DNA from: a virus
Taxonomy: Duplodnaviria > Heunggongvirae > Uroviricota > Caudoviricetes
Virus record (IMG/VR): IMGVR_UViG_2541047892_000001
DNA length: 35,657 nt
Reading direction: 5' to 3' (one strand)
The notes under the pieces were generated by a model, which searched no databases, was not told the DNA's origin, and saw only the letters and a program-made list of their open reading frames with translations. Shown one piece after another: positions 24,141 through 35,657 of this stretch (positions are counted from its first letter, which is position 1; the number at the start of each line of letters is the position of its first letter). Position numbers and translations under genes: made by a program.

Positions 24141-24203
24141 GTGTGTCTCCTTGTTTGGTGGAGACAGCATCACAAATGTGGCGGGATACGGATTTTAAAG
24201 CGC

Positions 24204-24243
24204 GTTATAAGTGTTCGCAGAGGGAAGCGACCAGAATGGTCGC
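24204..24243 (-). promoter_or_regulatory. Candidate activator-dependent late promoter for the lysis operon
   Basis: Minus-strand TATAAC (24209..24204) lies 17 nt downstream of a perfect dyad GCGACC-n5-GGTCGC (24227..24243) occupying the -35 position, about 65 nt upstream of the holin start. Confidence 0.4.
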
Positions 24244-24270
24244 ACACAAAACATAGGGGAGGCAAGCACA

Positions 24271-24594
24271 ATGACTGAACCGAAACAGTCTGGTATTAAA
24301 AAAGGGTTCCTCTTTGGGAGCAGAATCGGAGAGCAGAATAAAACTTACACGCTAAGCTTGGATGCATGTTGTCCAACCGAAGCGATTATAGAGCTGAAAA
24401 ACGTTCTGGTTGCACTTGAAGAGAGAAGAAGTCATTTCGCCAGCGGAGAAAACAACGTCATGCTAATTGGCGATGTGGCGGCGACATCACGATATAAAAC
24501 CGCACCTAATCCTGCGATTCAGTTATCCTTCGACCAACGAATACTGGAAGCGGAATCAGCAGTTCCCAGAACGGTTCGTCCTCACCAGTCTTAA
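24271..24594 (+). CDS. Hypothetical small protein (107 aa), divergent from the lysis operon
   Basis: ATG at 24271 preceded by GGGGAGG with 8-nt spacing; 3' end overlaps the convergent 191-aa gene by 89 nt, so one of the two may be miscalled. Confidence 0.3.
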   Translation: MTEPKQSGIKKGFLFGSRIGEQNKTYTLSLDACCPTEAIIELKNVLVALEERRSHFASGENNVMLIGDVAATSRYKTAPNPAIQLSFDQRILEAESAVPRTVRPHQS

Positions 24595-25081
24595 CTGGGG
24601 CTGCTTCACCCGACCAGTAAAGCCAAGCACGGTGATACAGTTCCAGCACCGGGCAATCACTGTTCAATAACCTCATATCTCCGCGATGCACCTGCTCATT
24701 TGTGATGACTTCATATATCGGTGCCGTTCTTATTTCGTCTTCGCCTCTCTCATCAGCCAGTAATTCCCTGAACTTCCTGACTTCACTCAGATGCTGACAG
24801 GCAAACAGTGACTGATAGCGGGAAGGTTTATCAGGAAAATGGCTACGGCGAACTAACTCAAACACCAGACCGACCAGCAGACTTCTGCTGATTCCACTGT
24901 CATCTTCCATTTTAGGGCCGGGGTTATAGAGATAGTTATACCCGTGACTCGAAAGGCCATTGGGATACATCTGATGAAGAAAAGCGGCCAGTTCTGGCAT
25001 TTCAGGCTCGTATTTTCCGGTAATTACATGACAAGGCGAAGGCAGACGACTAGCGGAATCAAGTGTGTAATACGTTCCCAT
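24506..25081 (-). CDS. Hypothetical accessory protein (191 aa), no recognisable family
   Basis: ORF in the accessory region between lysis genes and repressor; separated from the upstream cassette by a 409-nt non-coding gap. Confidence 0.5.
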   Translation of the reverse strand: MGTYYTLDSASRLPSPCHVITGKYEPEMPELAAFLHQMYPNGLSSHGYNYLYNPGPKMEDDSGISRSLLVGLVFELVRRSHFPDKPSRYQSLFACQHLSEVRKFRELLADERGEDEIRTAPIYEVITNEQVHRGDMRLLNSDCPVLELYHRAWLYWSGEAAPVKTGEDEPFWELLIPLPVFVGRRITESQD

Positions 25082-25196
25082 TCAGAAAACAATCCTTATC
25101 GAACAAACACTGCACGTAGGTAATGCATCCAGTAAATCGCGTTAATAGAAATCATGTATCTCAAAACTTCACTCTGAACTCTGACAGTGAAAGAAC

Positions 25197-25228
25197 GACC
25201 AGCCCGGTACCCGAACTCCGGGCTGGTC
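25197..25228 (-). terminator. Perfect 11-bp stem / 10-nt loop hairpin; possible terminator of the repressor-linked cassette
   Basis: GACCAGCCCGG-tacccgaact-CCGGGCTGGTC; on the minus strand it is followed by GUUCUUUCA, a weak U-tract. Confidence 0.35.
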
Positions 25229-25490
25229 ATCGCCCCACAGGAATGCACTGTGAGCCGACCGAGGTTCAGTCAGTCTCGCGAGACCAGACTAGCCTGCCAT
25301 ATTTTTTATAATTATAAAAGGGTTACAGATTATGAAAATGCAGACATTCCCCATCGCTCCATGGATTGGTTGTAAACGCCGCCATGCCAGACATATTCTG
25401 GCCGATGTTTCCTAGCACGCACGAATATGAGGCAACTGACGAGAATAAATGATGCGTCAGAATGAACCGTCGACACCGTGATTTCAGGTT

Positions 25491-26102
25491 TCAAAAATCT
25501 GGAGAAGGTATATCTATCTGACCGACGTTTCGTAACCACATCTCTTGCTTTGTTTCTTTATTGGTTCGGGCGATATCATTAGCATTGTATCTGCATGTTT
25601 TAACCGCAACCTCACGAACTCGTGCTATAGGAGTATTTGTGTAGAATTTAAGATCTTCCTCTACCGCTCGTATGGCGATAAGCCCTCCACTCTGAAAACC
25701 GCTGGTTACTTTTAAAAGATCAACTCCTTGGTTATAAACGGCATTACATACGTTAGGGAACTCATCTTCTACAGTTTTGGGGATCATCAGCATATCAGGA
25801 AGACCCTGTAACACGTTATCTTCCTTTGGCCTCCATGCCCTTCCCAAAAAAGCTGTTATAGGTTGTGGTGTAGAAAGAAATGCCAATTCTATATAAAACA
25901 AACCACTGTAGTGATCGCGTAACGAATAGACTAGTAAATGATCTTTTCCAGTTTTACTTGCATTGCTAAGTTTTATATCAAATGGTTTTTTCTGGTACTT
26001 AAGCAATCCATCAACTCCCGCATAATAATGCTTTGAAACAGCAACAGAAAGTTGATGTACTTGGTTCGGATAATCTGTTCTATATCGTTTAATTAGCCCC
26101 AT
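25491..26102 (-). CDS. Hypothetical accessory protein (203 aa), third gene of the repressor-linked cassette
   Basis: AT-rich (about 36-40% GC by eye); GAGG ribosome-binding site 6 nt upstream of ATG; 20 nt downstream of the 328-aa gene. Confidence 0.6.
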   Translation of the reverse strand: MGLIKRYRTDYPNQVHQLSVAVSKHYYAGVDGLLKYQKKPFDIKLSNASKTGKDHLLVYSLRDHYSGLFYIELAFLSTPQPITAFLGRAWRPKEDNVLQGLPDMLMIPKTVEDEFPNVCNAVYNQGVDLLKVTSGFQSGGLIAIRAVEEDLKFYTNTPIARVREVAVKTCRYNANDIARTNKETKQEMWLRNVGQIDIPSPDF

Positions 26103-26122
26103 AATAGCCTCGCAGTTATTTT

Positions 26123-27109
26123 CTATTTCAAAATATAACGATATTTACTATCTGGAGTGTTTTGTTGGTCAAGTAATAGAGCTCTACATGGGGCGGTCAA
26201 AACACGGGCATAACGACCATCGGGGTTTATGTTGATGTAACAAGTTTTCCCTTTAACACCATAAGATTCAGGTATTATTGCCTGTGTAGACACCGTGAAT
26301 TTAAGGGTATGCCAGCCCGATTTTTGCTTGTAGCTTGAAACCGAATGGAAATCATCTGAGTACTTATTTAACCCTGGAAACATGCTGCGTAATGCTGGGA
26401 TGGAATCTTCTATTATTTTGTCGTTGGTTTTAATGTTAAAAACGCTGGTTTCAGTAGATGCTACTGCTTTAGCATTTCCCCATTTACCAGCGAACACAAT
26501 CATTCCCACGAAAAATATTGCGACAAGAACTAACGCTCCCCCCAACACTACTACATGAGGCTTCCGGCTTCTGGTTGGTACAGTCGCGACTGATTTTGCC
26601 CCGCTGTCCGATGGAGGTGATAGAGTTTTACTCTCATCACGAATATTCAGCAGATCATCAAAATAACCAAACACAGCCTGCAACTGCTCTTTGTCCAGGC
26701 CTTTAAGATGGGTTGTACCGAAATGCTTCAGACAGTATCTGTCACGGTCAAGACGATACCTAGGGTCAGTAAGCACCATTATTTTGCTGACCAGAAGATT
26801 ACAGTCCTTCATATTCTGGATCTGTTGTGCATATCTCTGGAGGATCTCAACCGCACCATGATAATCAGCCGCAGTCATTTCATTAACTGTTTTGGTATTA
26901 AGTTTCGTGTGGATCGTCATCCATAGTTCGCGCTTACTTTCCCCCAGATCAACCAATTCATCCATCAATCTGTGTAAATCGCGTTTTTGCAGCAACGAAA
27001 TTGGTTGCTGGGCAGAGGGAAGTATGTCAGCAGAATAGTTATGAATGGTAACATCACCGCTGACAACGTTACCCACATCTCCGTTAACTGTTTGCTTCTC
27101 TTTACTCAT
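26123..27109 (-). CDS. Hypothetical bitopic membrane protein (328 aa): N-terminal Gly-rich motif, about 190-aa cytoplasmic domain, one TM, about 110-aa C-terminal domain
   Basis: TM helix HVVVLGGALVLVAIFFVGMIVFAG; start codon overlaps the repressor stop (ATGA); AT-rich. Confidence 0.65.
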   Translation of the reverse strand: MSKEKQTVNGDVGNVVSGDVTIHNYSADILPSAQQPISLLQKRDLHRLMDELVDLGESKRELWMTIHTKLNTKTVNEMTAADYHGAVEILQRYAQQIQNMKDCNLLVSKIMVLTDPRYRLDRDRYCLKHFGTTHLKGLDKEQLQAVFGYFDDLLNIRDESKTLSPPSDSGAKSVATVPTRSRKPHVVVLGGALVLVAIFFVGMIVFAGKWGNAKAVASTETSVFNIKTNDKIIEDSIPALRSMFPGLNKYSDDFHSVSSYKQKSGWHTLKFTVSTQAIIPESYGVKGKTCYININPDGRYARVLTAPCRALLLDQQNTPDSKYRYILK

Positions 27110-27567
27110 TTTCTCTTTGTATTTTTGTTCATTATTCCACCTGTTCCTATGGTTACGTTACCTTTGATAACATTCCCCAGAACATCTCCATGAATAACCT
27201 GTTCCGCCCGTTCTCTGGAGGAGCCAGTCGTCAATGCCGACAAAACTGAACCTTTGACTTGTAACGGTGCTTGCCGGTAGTGCTGAAGTAACTCCATTTC
27301 ATCACGTGATAAAGTTATACCTGATGATTCCCCAGTAAGAATGAACTGTACGTTGGCCCCAATTCTTGCAAAGGCTGCAAGTAACTCACCTCCGGGAACT
27401 GCAACCCCTCGTTCATATTTCCCCCACATTTCTCTTGAAACGCCACAAAGGGCTGCTACTTCAGCCTGCTTGAGTGATAACCGCGAACGCTCAGCTTTGA
27501 ACCGCGACGCGCAAAGAGAATCAAAATTCACATAAACCTCATTGACAATGAGAACAATGGTTCTCAT
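27106..27567 (-). CDS. XRE-family HTH transcriptional repressor (putative prophage repressor)
   Basis: HTH_XRE signature LKQAEVAALCGVSREMWGKYERG; divergent from the early operon; alternative GTG start at 27531 with a GAGG site would leave the operator and early promoter outside the coding region. Confidence 0.8.
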   Translation of the reverse strand: MRTIVLIVNEVYVNFDSLCASRFKAERSRLSLKQAEVAALCGVSREMWGKYERGVAVPGGELLAAFARIGANVQFILTGESSGITLSRDEMELLQHYRQAPLQVKGSVLSALTTGSSRERAEQVIHGDVLGNVIKGNVTIGTGGIMNKNTKRK

Positions 27568-27570
27568 AAT
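27542..27570 (+). promoter_or_regulatory. Early promoter: -35 TTGACA, 17-bp spacer, -10 CATAAT, with an operator-like inverted repeat in the spacer
   Basis: TTGACA at 27542..27547 and CATAAT at 27565..27570; spacer contains ATGAGAAC-aatg-GTTCTCAT (27548..27567); 48 nt upstream of the first early gene. Confidence 0.55.
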
Positions 27571-30872: not shown

Positions 30873-32039
30873 ATGCTGGTACTGAAGCAGCAACTGAAAG
30901 AGGCCCGTATTCCACAGGCGGTGGTGGCGAGAGCTGTCGATGTTTCTGAGGCCACGCTGGCCCAGATTGTGAATCATAACGCGTGGCCCCGCACCAGCCC
31001 CGGAGAAGTGCGCCGGCGTCTTGCGTCCTGGTTGGAAAGTCAGGGGATTGATACAGCGAAGAGTTTTGATGCTGTACAGGGCGCGGCCACTCCCCGTACA
31101 GCGGGTACCACAGATAAAACGAGCCTCAGTGAGGAAGAGAATATGTTACTCAAAAAACAGGTGTTATTCCCGGCAACCAAAAAAGCGTTTGGTCTTTTCC
31201 GTGACCCGTTCGCCGACGAAGCCATGCAGGGTTCTGATGATGTGTTCACCACCCCGGACATTCGCTACGTGCGTGAGGCGTTGTACCAGACAGCCCGTCA
31301 TGGTGGGTTTATGGCCGTCATCGGTGAGTCCGGTGCGGGTAAATCCACGCTGCGCCGCGACCTGACTGAACGTATCAACCGCGAGAATGCGCCGGTAATT
31401 GTTATCGAGCCATACATCATCGCTATGGAAGACAACGATGTGAAAGGGAAAACCCTGAAGGCAGCAGCTATTGCCGAAGCCATTATCAGTACCATCGCAC
31501 CACTGGAAAGCATCAGACGCAGTCAGGACGCCCGCTTTCGCCAGTTGCATCGCGTCCTGAAAGACAGCAGCCAGGCGGGGTTCAGCCACGTTCTGGTGAT
31601 TGAGGAGGCCCACAGTCTGCCCATTCCGACACTGAAACACCTCAAACGCTTTTTTGAGCTGGAGTCCGGTTTCAAAAAACTGCTGTCCATCGTGCTGATT
31701 GGCCAGCCGGAACTGGCGACAAAACTGTCTGAACGCAATATGGAAGTCCGTGAAGTCGTTCAGCGCTGTGAGGTGGTCGAACTTCTGCCTCTGGACAATA
31801 ACCTTGAAGAGTTTCTGACGTTCAAACTGCAACGGGCAGGTAAACAACTGACGGACATTATGGACGCCAGTGCAGTGGATGCCATACGTGCCCGCCTGAG
31901 CAATCCGGGAAGTCATCGTAAAAATATGGTCAGCCTGTTGTATCCGCTGGCCGTCAGTAACCTGGTGATAGCCGCCATGAATCTGGCCGCTGAAATCGGG
32001 GTTCCACAGGTCAACGCTGACGTTGTCAAAGGGGTTTAA
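30873..32039 (+). CDS. Transposition AAA+ ATPase (MuB / TniB / ExeA-like)
   Basis: Walker A VIGESGAGKST and Walker B VLVIEEAH; N-terminal HTH-like segment; GAGGAGGG ribosome-binding site; start 10 nt after the transposase stop. Confidence 0.85.
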   Translation: MLVLKQQLKEARIPQAVVARAVDVSEATLAQIVNHNAWPRTSPGEVRRRLASWLESQGIDTAKSFDAVQGAATPRTAGTTDKTSLSEEENMLLKKQVLFPATKKAFGLFRDPFADEAMQGSDDVFTTPDIRYVREALYQTARHGGFMAVIGESGAGKSTLRRDLTERINRENAPVIVIEPYIIAMEDNDVKGKTLKAAAIAEAIISTIAPLESIRRSQDARFRQLHRVLKDSSQAGFSHVLVIEEAHSLPIPTLKHLKRFFELESGFKKLLSIVLIGQPELATKLSERNMEVREVVQRCEVVELLPLDNNLEEFLTFKLQRAGKQLTDIMDASAVDAIRARLSNPGSHRKNMVSLLYPLAVSNLVIAAMNLAAEIGVPQVNADVVKGV

Positions 32040-32041
32040 TA

Positions 32042-32311
32042 ATGAAATCCACCACAGGTATCAACCAGCAAATCAGCAAAGTGCAGTCAGCCATTATGGC
32101 GCTTAAGGCGACGAACACGGATGTACAAAGCATCACCATCAGGGGTAACAAACCTGTCATCCGCGTTTCCCGGAGTGCGCATTGCATGCGCATGCTTGAG
32201 CAGGGAAAGGCCTGTTATCTGTATACCGGACATGACCACAGGGGATATTTCCGTCAGGGCGTTTTCGAACTGCACGGCTGTCGCGTCGTGTGGCCGGAAT
32301 CTTTGTGGTAA
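32042..32311 (+). CDS. Hypothetical early protein (89 aa)
   Basis: Starts 2 nt after the ATPase stop; no family recognised. Confidence 0.45.
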   Translation: MKSTTGINQQISKVQSAIMALKATNTDVQSITIRGNKPVIRVSRSAHCMRMLEQGKACYLYTGHDHRGYFRQGVFELHGCRVVWPESLW

Positions 32312-32338
32312 TCAGCACAACTGGAGAAATCATAAGAT

Positions 32339-32869
32339 ATGGCAAAAAGTACAAAAGGGGCAAAACGTATCAAGTCCGCAGCGGCACTCTGGGTACCGGG
32401 GACACGCGAAGAGGTCATTGAGGGAATCAGACTGCTCGGTGACGCACAACGTGAACTGGTCAGGGCTGAAACAGAAATGAATGACGCCATTGGCGATATC
32501 ACCGCACGTTATGCCCCGCTCACCGAGAGCCTAAAAAAACGCATGGCCGAACTGCAGTCCGGTATTCAGACATGGTGTGAGGCACACCGTGATGAACTGA
32601 CCGGCAACGGGAAGGTGAAGTTCGCTAACCTCACCACCGGCGAGGTGCAGTGGCGAAACCGTCCGCCATCAGTCAGTATCCGTGGAGCGGATAATGTTAT
32701 TGAACTACTGAGACGTCTGGGGCTTGAGCGCTTTATTCGTGTAAAAGAGGAAATAAATAAAGATGCCATTCTGAATGAAAAAGAGGCCGTGAAAAATATT
32801 CCCGGTATTACCATAAAAAGTGATATTGAGGATTTTTCAATAATTCCTTTTGAGCAGGATGTGCAGTAA
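32339..32869 (+). CDS. gam: Host-nuclease inhibitor Gam (Mu Gam family)
   Basis: 176 aa; KRIKSAAA...GDxQRE...ETEMNDAI...VSIRG...ERFIR...EDFSIIPFEQ closely parallels Mu Gam as recalled from memory. Confidence 0.88.
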   Translation: MAKSTKGAKRIKSAAALWVPGTREEVIEGIRLLGDAQRELVRAETEMNDAIGDITARYAPLTESLKKRMAELQSGIQTWCEAHRDELTGNGKVKFANLTTGEVQWRNRPPSVSIRGADNVIELLRRLGLERFIRVKEEINKDAILNEKEAVKNIPGITIKSDIEDFSIIPFEQDVQ

Positions 32870-32966
32870 ACACACCACGTTAATTATTTAATAAAAACAT
32901 TTTCTTTTTTATTCCGGCGTCAGCGCCGTGGGCTTCTGCACGCCGGAAACAGAGGAGAATTAAATT

Positions 32967-33161
32967 ATGATATTTAAATGTATTCAGTGCGAGAGGGATA
33001 TAACAGCCCTGCGTTTTCACAGCGCCATCGCCGTGATGTCCGGTAAGTACCACGTACCTGCAGTACGTGTCACCCTGGTCTGTCCGTACTGCAGCCAGCA
33101 TTTTTCGGCGGACGTGCCCGTCATGGAATTCTTCCGCCCTGACAGGGAGGACGCGCAATGA
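32967..33161 (+). CDS. Small zinc-ribbon-like protein (CxxC...CxxC)
   Basis: 64 aa with Cys pairs C5/C8 and C39/C42; GAGGAG 9 nt upstream. Confidence 0.5.
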   Translation: MIFKCIQCERDITALRFHSAIAVMSGKYHVPAVRVTLVCPYCSQHFSADVPVMEFFRPDREDAQ

Positions 33162-33430
33162 TTACCCCACAGGACGCAGAAAAACGGACCCGCGAAATTG
33201 TCGCGGAATATATCCGTGAATGTGGTTGTAAAACCCCCAACCATATCCGGCTGGTATTAACCAAATTAATCAGCATGGCCGCGCAGGCTATTGTGGCGAC
33301 CAACGGAAAGGAGGCTGCCCTGCAGGTACTGGTGAACACACTCACCCACACGGCAGAGCATGAGGTGCCGTACCGGATGGAAACTACTGCAGAAGGCGGC
33401 CTGCACATCACCGTCGACCGGAAGCACTGA
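33158..33430 (+). CDS. Hypothetical early protein (90 aa)
   Basis: ATGA overlap with the previous gene. Confidence 0.45.
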   Translation: MITPQDAEKRTREIVAEYIRECGCKTPNHIRLVLTKLISMAAQAIVATNGKEAALQVLVNTLTHTAEHEVPYRMETTAEGGLHITVDRKH

Positions 33431-33439
33431 GGGCGCGAC

Positions 33440-33745
33440 ATGACACGAAACACCGAACTCACCCGCACCGCCCTCTACCGTCTGGCTCTGCAGCGTTTCG
33501 GGCCGGATGCACAGGCCCTGAAACTGACAGAAGAGGCCGCCGAACTGGCGGCCAGTGCCGCCCGCAACCTGAACGGACAGGGCAGCGAAAGTGACCTCGC
33601 GGCAGAGCTGGCAGACGTGGAAATCATGACAGAGCAGCTGCGCCTTCAGGGGATGGACCGGCTGATTGACTTCCACAAACAGAAAAAACTGGAACGCCTT
33701 GCCGCACGGCTGGGCGTCATGTACACCGGAGATACTGAACAATGA
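33440..33745 (+). CDS. Small MazG-like nucleotide pyrophosphohydrolase (tentative)
   Basis: 101 aa; TEEAAELAAS and AAELADVEIMTEQL resemble the MazG/HisE EExxE...E..D motifs. Confidence 0.4.
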   Translation: MTRNTELTRTALYRLALQRFGPDAQALKLTEEAAELAASAARNLNGQGSESDLAAELADVEIMTEQLRLQGMDRLIDFHKQKKLERLAARLGVMYTGDTEQ

Positions 33746-34422
33746 CAGACCAGGATAAACACATTGAGAAACTGAAAAAGTTGCTGGCGCTGGCCGCATC
33801 CGGCAACCCTCACGAGGCCGCTCTGGCACTGCGCCGTGCCCGTAAACTGATGGATGTTCACGGCATCACACATTCCGACATCGCCATGAGTGATATTGAT
33901 GAAACCATCAGTCACTACTGGCCGACAGGCAGCCTCCGTCCACCGCGCTACATGCTGGGCCTGATGAACATCATCCGCGAGGCATTTGGTGTTAACTCCA
34001 TCATTCACCCCGGCACATATCCGGGTGTGGGGTTCTACGGCAACCGGGAACGGGCTGCACTGGCTGCGTACACCTGGGAAGTGCTGGCCCGCCAGCTGAA
34101 AAAGGCGCGTCAGCAATATATCAGCGCACAGAACAAAAGAATAAAAACTGCCACCCGTACCAGCCGTGGTGACCAGTTTGCTGAAGGCTGGGTGCTGGCC
34201 GTTATCAGTGAAATACAGTCCTTCGCCCTGACCGATGACGAACGTGAACTGATGCAGCAGTGGCTGGAACATAAATACCCGCAAACGCAAACCACCAGGG
34301 CGCGTAAAGGAAGAAGCCGCAATGGCGGCGCCTCGCGCTATGCGGGGTTTCGTGAAGGGCAGAACGTCAGACTGCACCGCCCGGTCAGTGGGCAGGAACA
34401 ACAGAAACTGGAGGCCAGATGA
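33742..34422 (+). CDS. Early protein with N-terminal DUF2786-like domain
   Basis: 226 aa; IEKLKKLLALAASGNPHEAALALRRARKLMDVHGIT; overlaps the previous gene by 4 nt. Confidence 0.55.
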   Translation: MTDQDKHIEKLKKLLALAASGNPHEAALALRRARKLMDVHGITHSDIAMSDIDETISHYWPTGSLRPPRYMLGLMNIIREAFGVNSIIHPGTYPGVGFYGNRERAALAAYTWEVLARQLKKARQQYISAQNKRIKTATRTSRGDQFAEGWVLAVISEIQSFALTDDERELMQQWLEHKYPQTQTTRARKGRSRNGGASRYAGFREGQNVRLHRPVSGQEQQKLEAR

Positions 34423-34649
34423 TTACGCTATCAGGTAACAGCCGGAAATTAAAAGCCTGCCGAATATCTGCCAGATACCTTTTTGCCCGCGCCTTTTTTA
34501 AGAACGTCAGGCCGGGGATCACAATTGGTGTTATTGCCGGACGCGAACAGGTTGAAAAATACATGTCAGGTGCATGGTGGAATAACGACCCTGTCATTGC
34601 TGCCCGTAATATTCATATCAGTTGGGGGGATATTCAGAATGACTGCTGA
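34419..34649 (+). CDS. Hypothetical small early protein (76 aa)
   Basis: ATGA coupling with the upstream gene; no family recognised. Confidence 0.35.
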   Translation: MITLSGNSRKLKACRISARYLFARAFFKNVRPGITIGVIAGREQVEKYMSGAWWNNDPVIAARNIHISWGDIQNDC

Positions 34650-34854
34650 ATCTGTTGTATGTGCCATGTTCTGGTATTGTTTTGTCGGTTGGTGTACTGC
34701 TGAACTGCACCGCCGTTCAGGGTTTTATTCACGTTACAGTGGTGCCGGCTACTGGATTAGCTGGTCGGTGATGTTCCTGTGCTGGCCTGTGGCGCTTCCT
34801 TTATATGTCGATTATATCGGTGGCGCAGGTAAAAGGAGCAACGATGATGACTAA
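34639..34854 (+). CDS. Small membrane protein (two predicted TM helices)
   Basis: ATG at 34639 preceded by a G-run; VVCAMFWYCFVGW and WISWSVMFLCWPVALPLYV hydrophobic segments; the longer ORF-track start would overlap the previous gene. Confidence 0.4.
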   Translation: MTAESVVCAMFWYCFVGWCTAELHRRSGFYSRYSGAGYWISWSVMFLCWPVALPLYVDYIGGAGKRSNDDD

Positions 34855-35296
34855 ACAACGTCTTATCCAGCTCATTCATATTGCCCGTAATGAACTGGGT
34901 ATGGATGAAGACACCTACCGCCAGATGTTACAGGGGCTGACCGGTAAAGCCTCAACCAAAGGAATGGATACCACACAACTAAACTGCGTGCTGGAATCCA
35001 TGAAAAGGAAAGGCTTTCGCGTTAAGCCTGCCGGAAAAGCCAGCTCCGGTTTACCGCTGGATAACCATCCGCAGTCCAGGAAAATCCGTGCGCTATGGAT
35101 TGAAATGGCTGCTGCCGGCATTGTTCGTGACCGTTCAGAAAATGCATTAGCGCGGTGGATCAAGCGGGAAACGGGCATCAGCGCCCTGCGCTGGCTCAAT
35201 ACTGAACAGGCAAGCAGTGTTATTGAGAAACTGAAGAAGTGGCAGCGCAGAGCTGCGGGAGTAAAACATGAGCGACCTGAATCAGTTTCGAAGTAA
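34844..35296 (+). CDS. GemA / Mu gp16-like protein
   Basis: LIQLIHIARNELGMDEDTYRQMLQGLTGKASTKGM matches the GemA-type N-terminus; AAGGAG 5 nt upstream of ATG 34844. Confidence 0.7.
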   Translation: MMTKQRLIQLIHIARNELGMDEDTYRQMLQGLTGKASTKGMDTTQLNCVLESMKRKGFRVKPAGKASSGLPLDNHPQSRKIRALWIEMAAAGIVRDRSENALARWIKRETGISALRWLNTEQASSVIEKLKKWQRRAAGVKHERPESVSK

Positions 35297-35657
35297 AGGG
35301 CCGGAACTCCTGGTGGAACTGGCACAGCATACCTCTGAGACCGTTCGCGAGATTATTGATATTGAGCCCGCAATTGCCGACCAGATTGGTCAGGCTGTCG
35401 CGAACCGAATGATGCAGGTCTGGGGCGGGCAAAACGTTTATTTCCCAATGGGCATGGTATGGAAGGTCAGTCAGCGCGACCGGGAAATCTTCAGGGAGTT
35501 TAACGGACGCAACCACCACGAACTGGCCCGCAAATTTGGTGTTTCGCTTCAGTGGGTCTACAGCGTGGTTAAGCGGGTAAGAAAAGAAGAACTGGATCGG
35601 ATGCAGGGCAAGCTATTTGCTGATGAACCCGATGCAGATACGGAGAAAAAAGAGTAA
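35268..35657 (+). CDS. mor: Mor/C-family transcriptional activator of late or middle genes
   Basis: 129 aa; GGQNVYFPMG...FNGRNHHELARKFGVSLQWVYSVVKR is the Mor/C HTH region; GGGAG ribosome-binding site; stop codon is the last 3 nt of the window. Confidence 0.85.
   Translation: MSDLNQFRSKGPELLVELAQHTSETVREIIDIEPAIADQIGQAVANRMMQVWGGQNVYFPMGMVWKVSQRDREIFREFNGRNHHELARKFGVSLQWVYSVVKRVRKEELDRMQGKLFADEPDADTEKKE

Follow-up and report, generated by a model that had tools for sequence, protein, structure and literature searches.

The accessory genes at positions 32042-34854 of the viral record IMGVR_UViG_2541047892_000001 – a 35,657-nucleotide (nt) stretch of DNA that was analyzed at its full length and is called the window here – very probably constitute the 'semi-essential early' module of a BcepMu-type transposable prophage. 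The products of this block would serve differing ends rather than make up a single system. The original prediction for this DNA had likened the stretch to the semi-essential early region of Mu-family phages, a comparison borne out by the position of the block between transposition protein B and GemA/Mor, by the presence of Gam and of a remote Kil homolog, and by variable gene content. It had also proposed that the cluster is an anti-defense set, which holds for Gam, given the documented role of the Gam family, and plausibly for a MazG-like protein, but is not established for the cluster as a whole. The block belongs to a known type of region, within which it is unexceptional, and overturns nothing about Mu-like phages; its value lies in annotation and in the choice of genes to test for counter-defense.

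Judged by its sequence, the window element is a BcepMu-type transposable prophage of Escherichia coli. This assignment follows from the 100% identity of the block to loci on the chromosomes of several E. coli strains, from its 94.6% identity to Escherichia phage PhiKM, whose GenBank record is classed under Bcepmuvirus, and from the PGAP annotation of an identical E. coli locus, where the prophage ends just past Mor and a host gene follows. Within the collection searched, 640 of 5,426 complete E. coli genomes (about 1 in 8) carry the block, and at least 80% of it is covered in 619 of these 640 copies. Carriers of the prophage include ST131 strains such as JJ1887, and most early proteins of this common E. 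coli prophage are annotated as hypothetical.

Some copies are damaged – an IS1 element interrupts gam in strain H43, and a large deletion runs from A through g6 in strain 360D-1 – as would be expected if the block were decaying, non-functional prophage DNA whose open reading frames (ORFs) are only mechanical. We give this explanation almost no credence. Every ORF of the block matches a PHROG family (E < 1e-13), hundreds of genomes carry these ORFs undamaged at 90-100% identity, the same genes are found in PhiKM, which was deposited in GenBank as a phage genome, and homologs of the block genes are conserved across genera; these conservation data contradict decay.

The semi-essential early module lies on the early (+) strand. 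Its left boundary is B, an ExeA-type AAA+ ATPase (30873..32039, + strand; 'ExeA family protein' in PGAP) that is 59% identical to BcepMu gp08, and its right boundary is formed by GemA (34847-35296, + strand; PF06252, E 6e-41) and Mor (35268-35657, + strand; PF08765, E 1.3e-43). Upstream of the first early gene we identified a sigma-70-like promoter, TTGACA-17-CATAAT at 27542-27570 (+), that matches the consensus at 11 of 12 positions and is probably the early promoter of the operon holding the block. This predicted promoter would drive an early operon of regulators, transposase A, B, the accessory genes, GemA and Mor, with the accessory block as the distal part of this rightward transcription unit. 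We count both the tight gene spacing and the promoter match in favor of the operon.

Nine genes were counted between B and GemA, and eight of them (g1-g8, with Gam as g2) are given below with coordinates, all on the + strand. The gene set derives from the ORF listing, from PHROG matches and from the RefSeq/PGAP calls at the identical E. coli locus, and the three agree. All genes named in the original prediction are present on this strand, in agreement with PGAP, but its list of six was incomplete, having overlooked g4 (33158-33430) and g7 (34419-34649). Its description of the genes as mostly coupled by ATGA overlaps proved overstated: such overlaps occur at three junctions (33158, 33742 and 34419), but the six other junctions are of different types – two longer overlaps, of 11 and 8 nt, and four spacers of 2, 27, 97 and 9 nt. 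The first of these spacers separates the B stop from the g1 ATG, and the 97-nt spacer follows gam.

The early region of phage Mu (kil, gp6-gp9, gam, gp11-gp15, gemA, mor) has the same position on the early strand, from B to gemA/mor, and the layout B, kil, gam, gemA, mor is common to both phages. The two Gam proteins share 63% identity over 169 amino acids (aa), B is followed by the gene for a remote Kil homolog, the zinc-ribbon protein possibly equates with Mu gp6, and the spacer after gam, together with its hairpin, is homologous. The phages differ in their transposition genes, an rve/Tn552-type transposase with an ExeA-type B in the window as against MuA and MuB in Mu, and in the content of the block. 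Mu is without the MazG-like, DUF2786/DUF7168, g4, g7 and g8 genes, whereas pairwise BLAST and profile comparisons found no counterparts of Mu gp7-9 or gp11-15 in the window phage, in which Gam directly follows the Kil-like gene.

Closer still in its transposition genes, which are the same and include the B noted above, is BcepMu, the namesake of a phage family reportedly described by Summer et al. in 2004. The layout from B to gemA and mor recurs in BcepMu, with GemA and Mor at the end of the genome, and its early block consists of gp07, the pyrophosphatase gp06, the DUF3164 protein gp05, the HU protein gp04 and gp03. BcepMu gp07 belongs to the g1 superfamily, matching phrog_2043 and, weakly, phrog_2041. 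A pyrophosphatase is present in both phages, but that of BcepMu belongs to another, longer PHROG family, and DUF3164, HU and gp03 stand in BcepMu instead of Gam, the zinc ribbon, g4, DUF2786, g7 and g8. A third arrangement is found in Aeromonas veronii, where a MuA/MuB prophage (locus L189, 2888-10100) encodes Kil, DUF3164, DUF2786/DUF7168, GemA and Mor, an order that also holds in BcepMu-type prophages. This shared gene order indicates that the accessory module is common to different transposase types.

To compare gene content, 48 loci from other species were fetched with B as anchor, and the 39 with an intact GemA were analyzed. The interval between B and GemA ranges from 0.72 to 4.3 kb in these loci (median 2.3 kb) and holds about 50 protein families. 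Taken as lower bounds, family counts were 21 loci for g1, 20 for DUF3164, 19 for DUF2786, 16 for the zinc ribbon, 13 for the MazG-like protein and 11 for Gam; tblastn added g1 in three more loci, bringing it to at least 24.

Gene content thus varies widely between species but is largely invariant inside E. coli, where we estimated the types from an evenly spaced sample of the 640 matches. About 18% of the sample is of the window type, about 10% has an additional 71-aa gene with one transmembrane (TM) segment between g5 and g6, and about 65% combines the 71-aa gene with a divergent g8 allele; the last group includes JJ1887 and the strain labeled O25b:H4-ST131. Rarer types carry a 135-aa gene in place of g7 (strain STIN_95) or a second inserted gene of 127 aa. 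The g5-g6 junction (window 33725-33745; L003 3180-3425; L192 6698-7289) is accordingly a hot spot of insertion and deletion that holds zero, one (71-aa) or two (127-aa and 71-aa) genes. In the window copy the C-terminus of g5, TGDTEQ, is that of the 71-aa gene – a deletion scar, which marks the window type as a deletion derivative.

In natural variants the 71-aa gene, g7 and g8 have been lost or swapped individually, as has Gam for DUF3164, and among these variants we saw no deletion of the whole block with viability kept. The module would evolve by cassette exchange at a few junctions, namely the slot shared by Gam and DUF3164, insertions between g5 and g6, and alternative g7 and g8 alleles. 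The identification of these exchange points is new from this analysis.

The best characterized product of the block is g2 (32339-32869, 176 aa), which is unambiguously a member of the Mu Gam family by profile match, a Ku-like protein for double-stranded DNA ends. It matches PF07352 at 140.4 bits against a cut-off of 28.3 (E 5.6e-41), over profile positions 1-148 of 149. By analogy with Mu Gam, it would bind the double-stranded ends of phage DNA during infection or transposition and keep RecBCD off them. Gam_Mu licenses Gabija and prevents RecBCD from loading (bioRxiv 10.1101/2025.08.30.673261), and anti-SIR2+HerA and anti-DUF4297+HerA activities have been reported for a Mu-Gam-like ORF of another phage (bioRxiv 10.1101/2024.04.14.589459). 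Among the block proteins Gam alone carries the PHROGs label 'host nuclease inhibitor', and it is the only block gene with a documented role against host defenses.

We observed that Gam and DUF3164 (phrog_846) never occur jointly in the 39 related prophages (11 and 20 loci; Fisher p 4.5e-5, uncorrected for relatedness) and that both take one slot after the Kil-like gene (window 32339-32869; L007 3863-4474; L010-L055). Profile comparison detected no homology between the two, and DUF3164 may be a functional substitute for Gam. Their recognition as one-slot alternatives is new here; literature searches on DUF3164, DUF2786 and DUF7168 retrieved incidental mentions only.

The first gene of the block, g1 (32042-32311, 89 aa; HI_1482 family; phrog_2041, E 3e-36), is a remote homolog of Mu Kil according to bridging sequences, profile comparison and synteny. 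A profile built from g1 and its BcepMu gp07-type relatives matched 220 representative clusters among 1.84 billion proteins. Of those matches, five reach phrog_2041 as well as the Kil family phrog_2743; phrog_6381 is reached, too, by three of these five. The best bridging protein (P0198) matches phrog_2743 at 5.5e-14, phrog_6381 at 1.2e-12, phrog_2041 at 3.5e-10 and phrog_2043 at 3e-5. When aligned by hhalign, the PF26843 Kil_protein of an Aeromonas Mu-type prophage matched the g1 profile with a probability of 78% (E 1.8e-5), and g1 and the Mu Kil family were colinear (E 7e-4, probability 26%). Kil is the first gene past B in Mu, as is g1 in the window; in the Aeromonas prophage, Kil is third after B and directly ahead of DUF3164.

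As stated in PMC3961180, which cites Waggoner 1989, expression of Mu kil yields spherical cells. By extension from that phenotype, g1 would, once the prophage is induced, affect the shape or division of the host cell, and its role is likely host takeover rather than counter-defense, since Kil acts on cell shape. The AlphaFold2 (AF2) model of g1 has a predicted local distance difference test (pLDDT) score of 91, and a BFVD fold search for a Mu Kil model yielded nothing but an uncharacterized family member. 'HI_1482 family', previously a protein with no other name, is now placed in the Kil superfamily.

The fifth gene, g5 (33440-33745, 101 aa), had been tentatively called MazG-like, and this holds at the level of the superfamily: the protein appears to be a minimal all-alpha nucleoside triphosphate (NTP) pyrophosphohydrolase of the MazG/PRA-PH type. 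It matches phrog_2245 ('NTP pyrophosphohydrolase', E 3.8e-34), a function that PGAP also names. We identified the motifs LKLxEEAAEL and ELADVEIM, conserved in nine aligned family members with invariant columns that include E31, E35, E56, D59 and E61; they match the metal-binding EExxE and ExxD of all-alpha NTP pyrophosphohydrolases. The call goes no further than the superfamily, and Pfam gathering thresholds were not reached. Such an enzyme would sanitize or alter the pool of nucleotides, or else deplete alarmones.

A precedent for a role of such enzymes in counter-defense is Atd1, a MazG-like anti-TIR pyrophosphatase of Pectobacterium phage PcCB7V that has twin catalytic motifs and protects against TIR effectors (bioRxiv 10.1101/2022.06.09.495361). 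Like Atd1, g5 is of the small phage all-alpha NTP pyrophosphohydrolase type and has EExxE and ExxD motifs; its tblastn matches in the phage collection are confined to four BcepMu-like phage records. Given Atd1, the sole precedent, a counter-defense role for g5 is a reasonable hypothesis and plausible by analogy. Cyanophage MazG, for its part, is stated in PMC12846349, which cites Rihtman 2019, not to hydrolyze (p)ppGpp.

The call of a DUF2786-like protein stands. In g6 (33742-34422, 226 aa), DUF2786 (PF10979, residues 8-44, 43.0 bits against 23.9) and DUF7168 (PF23771, residues 46-189, 91.8 bits against 25.5) both exceed their Pfam gathering scores and occur in this order. Its AF2 model (pLDDT 86; predicted template modeling score, pTM, 0.77) comprises an N-terminal helical hairpin (DUF2786), a KH-like alpha/beta domain (DUF7168) and basic C-terminal helices. 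Distant DUF2786/DUF7168 homologs (about 27% identity; P0070-P0075, locus L188) carry a fused SprT-like zinc metalloprotease domain at the N-terminus, in which an HExxH motif is present. These fusions and a predicted isoelectric point of 10 weakly indicate that g6 binds nucleic acid; it would be a basic, probably dimeric protein, with the modeled KH-like domain.

The zinc-ribbon gene g3 (32967-33161, 64 aa; phrog_3401, E 8.6e-40) encodes four cysteines – C5, C8, C39 and C42 – that are conserved in the family alignment. Compared by hhalign with the Mu gp6 family, it gave a probability of 56% and E 1.2e-4, in a run of 30 profile pairs in which the 28 pairs that are not positional equivalents gave E >= 0.05. 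The zinc ribbon g3 may correspond to Mu gp6.

Several points weigh against these assignments and against the early-module reading as a whole. The evidence on all genes of this prophage is computational, and the early-operon promoter is predicted from sequence alone. For g1, the link to Kil depends on intermediate sequences and on profile comparisons of moderate strength: there was no direct match to the Kil PHROGs (phrog_2743/6381), phrog_2041 being the only family found, and the Pfam record assigns g1 to no family although the same table gives PF26843 for the Aeromonas Kil, while the local Pfam copy had no match even for Mu Kil. Because g1 does not directly reach any Kil model, we call it a remote homolog rather than a member of the curated family. 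For g5, the match to PRA-PH in Pfam is sub-threshold (E 0.035, 14.9 bits against a cut-off of 21.3), and across its family PRA-PH is found in 8 of 9 members (best E 1.3e-3) and MazG in 4 of 9 (best E 0.018), likewise below threshold; sequence and profile searches yielded no relative in the Protein Data Bank (PDB). The prophage loci share phylogeny, so that the Fisher test for Gam and DUF3164 overstates their independence, and the ORF caller was crude, so that the family counts are lower bounds.

The reading suggested by the original prediction is a dedicated counter-defense island, in which most of the small proteins inhibit host immune systems. The reported activities of Gam-family proteins – a block to RecBCD loading and the anti-SIR2+HerA and anti-DUF4297+HerA effects – speak for it, as do the action of the MazG-like Atd1 against TIR effectors, the small size and early expression of the proteins, and a high variability between species with alternative cassettes in some slots, a pattern typical of an arms race. 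We nevertheless consider such an island unlikely. Its first gene groups with Kil, which acts on cell shape, and g3, g1 and g6 are among the genes most widely kept across relatives rather than fast-turnover cargo. Most of the block is also retained in nearly all E. coli copies, no similarity of g5 to phage proteins beyond this group of prophages could be detected, and no gene matches a defense-related model, PADLOC, a set of defense models, having returned nothing relevant for any of the proteins. Apart from Gam and possibly g5, a mixed accessory module is the better description of the block, with functions in host takeover, protection of DNA ends and nucleotide metabolism alongside a probable nucleic-acid binder and small membrane proteins.

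Within this mixed module, g3, g4, g7 and g8 are small proteins without a functional lead, and for g4, g7 and g8 the only lead consists of PHROG families of no assigned function. The 90-aa g4 (phrog_3691, E 2.8e-49), a PGAP coding sequence, had no informative match in Pfam, PDB or PADLOC. The PDB sequence and profile searches with g1, g6, g7 and DUF3164 likewise found nothing meaningful, and g4, g5 and g7 showed no similarity to Mu early proteins or to other post-B families in pairwise BLAST and profile comparisons. The 76-aa g7 is basic and is also a PGAP coding sequence (phrog_3681, E 4.4e-54). The last gene, g8, matches phrog_6436 and, by hydropathy, encodes the two-TM membrane protein that had been predicted, with two hydrophobic segments; its gene, however, is the 71-aa ORF at 34639-34854 and not a longer 123-aa ORF starting with TTG, which the earlier reader appears to have taken for it.

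Small membrane proteins often mediate exclusion, and g7, g8 and the optional 71-aa one-TM gene might accordingly benefit the prophage, through superinfection exclusion or as a toxin-like module, rather than serve as lytic-cycle accessories. It is at these positions that the block varies inside E. coli: alleles of g8 diverge to 38% identity between prophages that are otherwise about 95% identical, a 135-aa gene can replace g7, and the 71-aa gene is present or absent. We regard this reading as decidedly improbable, because g7 and g8 lie inside the early lytic operon in overlapping reading frames, a promoter scan found no promoter of their own, and the repressor would silence them in the lysogen if regulation follows Mu biology. 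A better candidate for lysogen-expressed cargo is a low-GC block beside the repressor gene.

This low-GC block (GC 0.42-0.45) extends over about 24200-27570 on the minus strand. Next to a repressor-like helix-turn-helix gene (27106-27567) it contains an overlapping 328-aa ORF (26123-27109), a 203-aa ORF (25491-26102) and a DUF2441 ORF (24506-25081). Neither the 328-aa nor the 203-aa ORF has a Pfam match, and these two and the DUF2441 ORF have no PADLOC match. Other E. coli variants carry different cargo in the same slot, for example a Dam methylase or NA37. The low-GC block is a candidate slot for lysogen-expressed cargo or defense genes.

Besides its proteins, the semi-essential early module contains a conserved RNA element in the 97-nt spacer between gam and g3. 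This intercistronic element (32899..32957, + strand) consists of a U-rich tract, a GC-rich hairpin, the sequence AAACAG and the g3 Shine-Dalgarno sequence GAGGAG. The hairpin that had been described before the zinc-ribbon gene is real, but its stem is 9 bp, one base pair longer than the 8 bp claimed, with perfect 9-nt arms TTCCGGCGT (32912-32920) and ACGCCGGAA (32940-32948). By our own estimate about 0.7 inverted repeats of 9 bp within 60 nt are expected by chance per 3.1 kb, so the repeat alone is not significant. The hairpin is more than chance because it is conserved with compensatory changes: in an alignment of 11 distinct sequences, 4 of the 15 pairs of the consensus hairpin show compensation on both sides. 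Folding of the 97-nt spacer gives -29.5 kcal/mol, with z = -4.3 relative to shuffled sequence, and the spacer is homologous to that of phage Mu over its entire length.

In relatives the element also stands behind DUF3164; it is missing where the next gene abuts gam, and some population variants have single mismatches in the hairpin. An intrinsic terminator was considered and rejected: neither strand has a U-tract after the hairpin (AAACAGAGGAG on the + strand, UAAAAAAG on the - strand), and the terminator scan did not report one. In the fold of the window, the g3 Shine-Dalgarno sequence is base-paired to the U-run upstream of it, as is also seen in folds of relatives with DUF3164 upstream. This pairing is not found in the Mu fold, and we reject occlusion of the Shine-Dalgarno sequence as a conserved feature, keeping it as one possibility only.

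A search of Rfam with the hairpin returned no family at E up to 1, and literature searches for a stem-loop after Mu gam retrieved nothing; the conserved post-gam hairpin common to the window and phage Mu is newly described here. We consider it a conserved intercistronic RNA structure with candidate roles as an mRNA stability barrier, a processing site or a translational attenuator. From its place after the Gam slot, it would probably determine how strongly the accessory genes downstream are expressed, or how stable their mRNA is, compared with the essential genes upstream.

These observations allow a bolder reading, which we put forward as tentative and regard as possible rather than probable: that at least one uncharacterized protein of the block is a new counter-defense or host-takeover factor (the best candidates being g5, g6 and the g3-g4 pair), that DUF3164 is a non-homologous replacement of Gam in DNA-end protection or RecBCD evasion, and that the post-Gam hairpin is a regulatory RNA metering the accessory genes.

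Two minor observations concern the zinc-ribbon gene itself. In PhiKM a minus-strand ORF of 73 aa seems to replace it; we rejected this as an annotation difference, as the zinc-ribbon ORF is intact there on the + strand. Inside the gene in the window we also observed a perfect 10-bp inverted repeat, CTGCAGTACG at 33058-33067 and CGTACTGCAG at 33085-33094, which includes two PstI sites.

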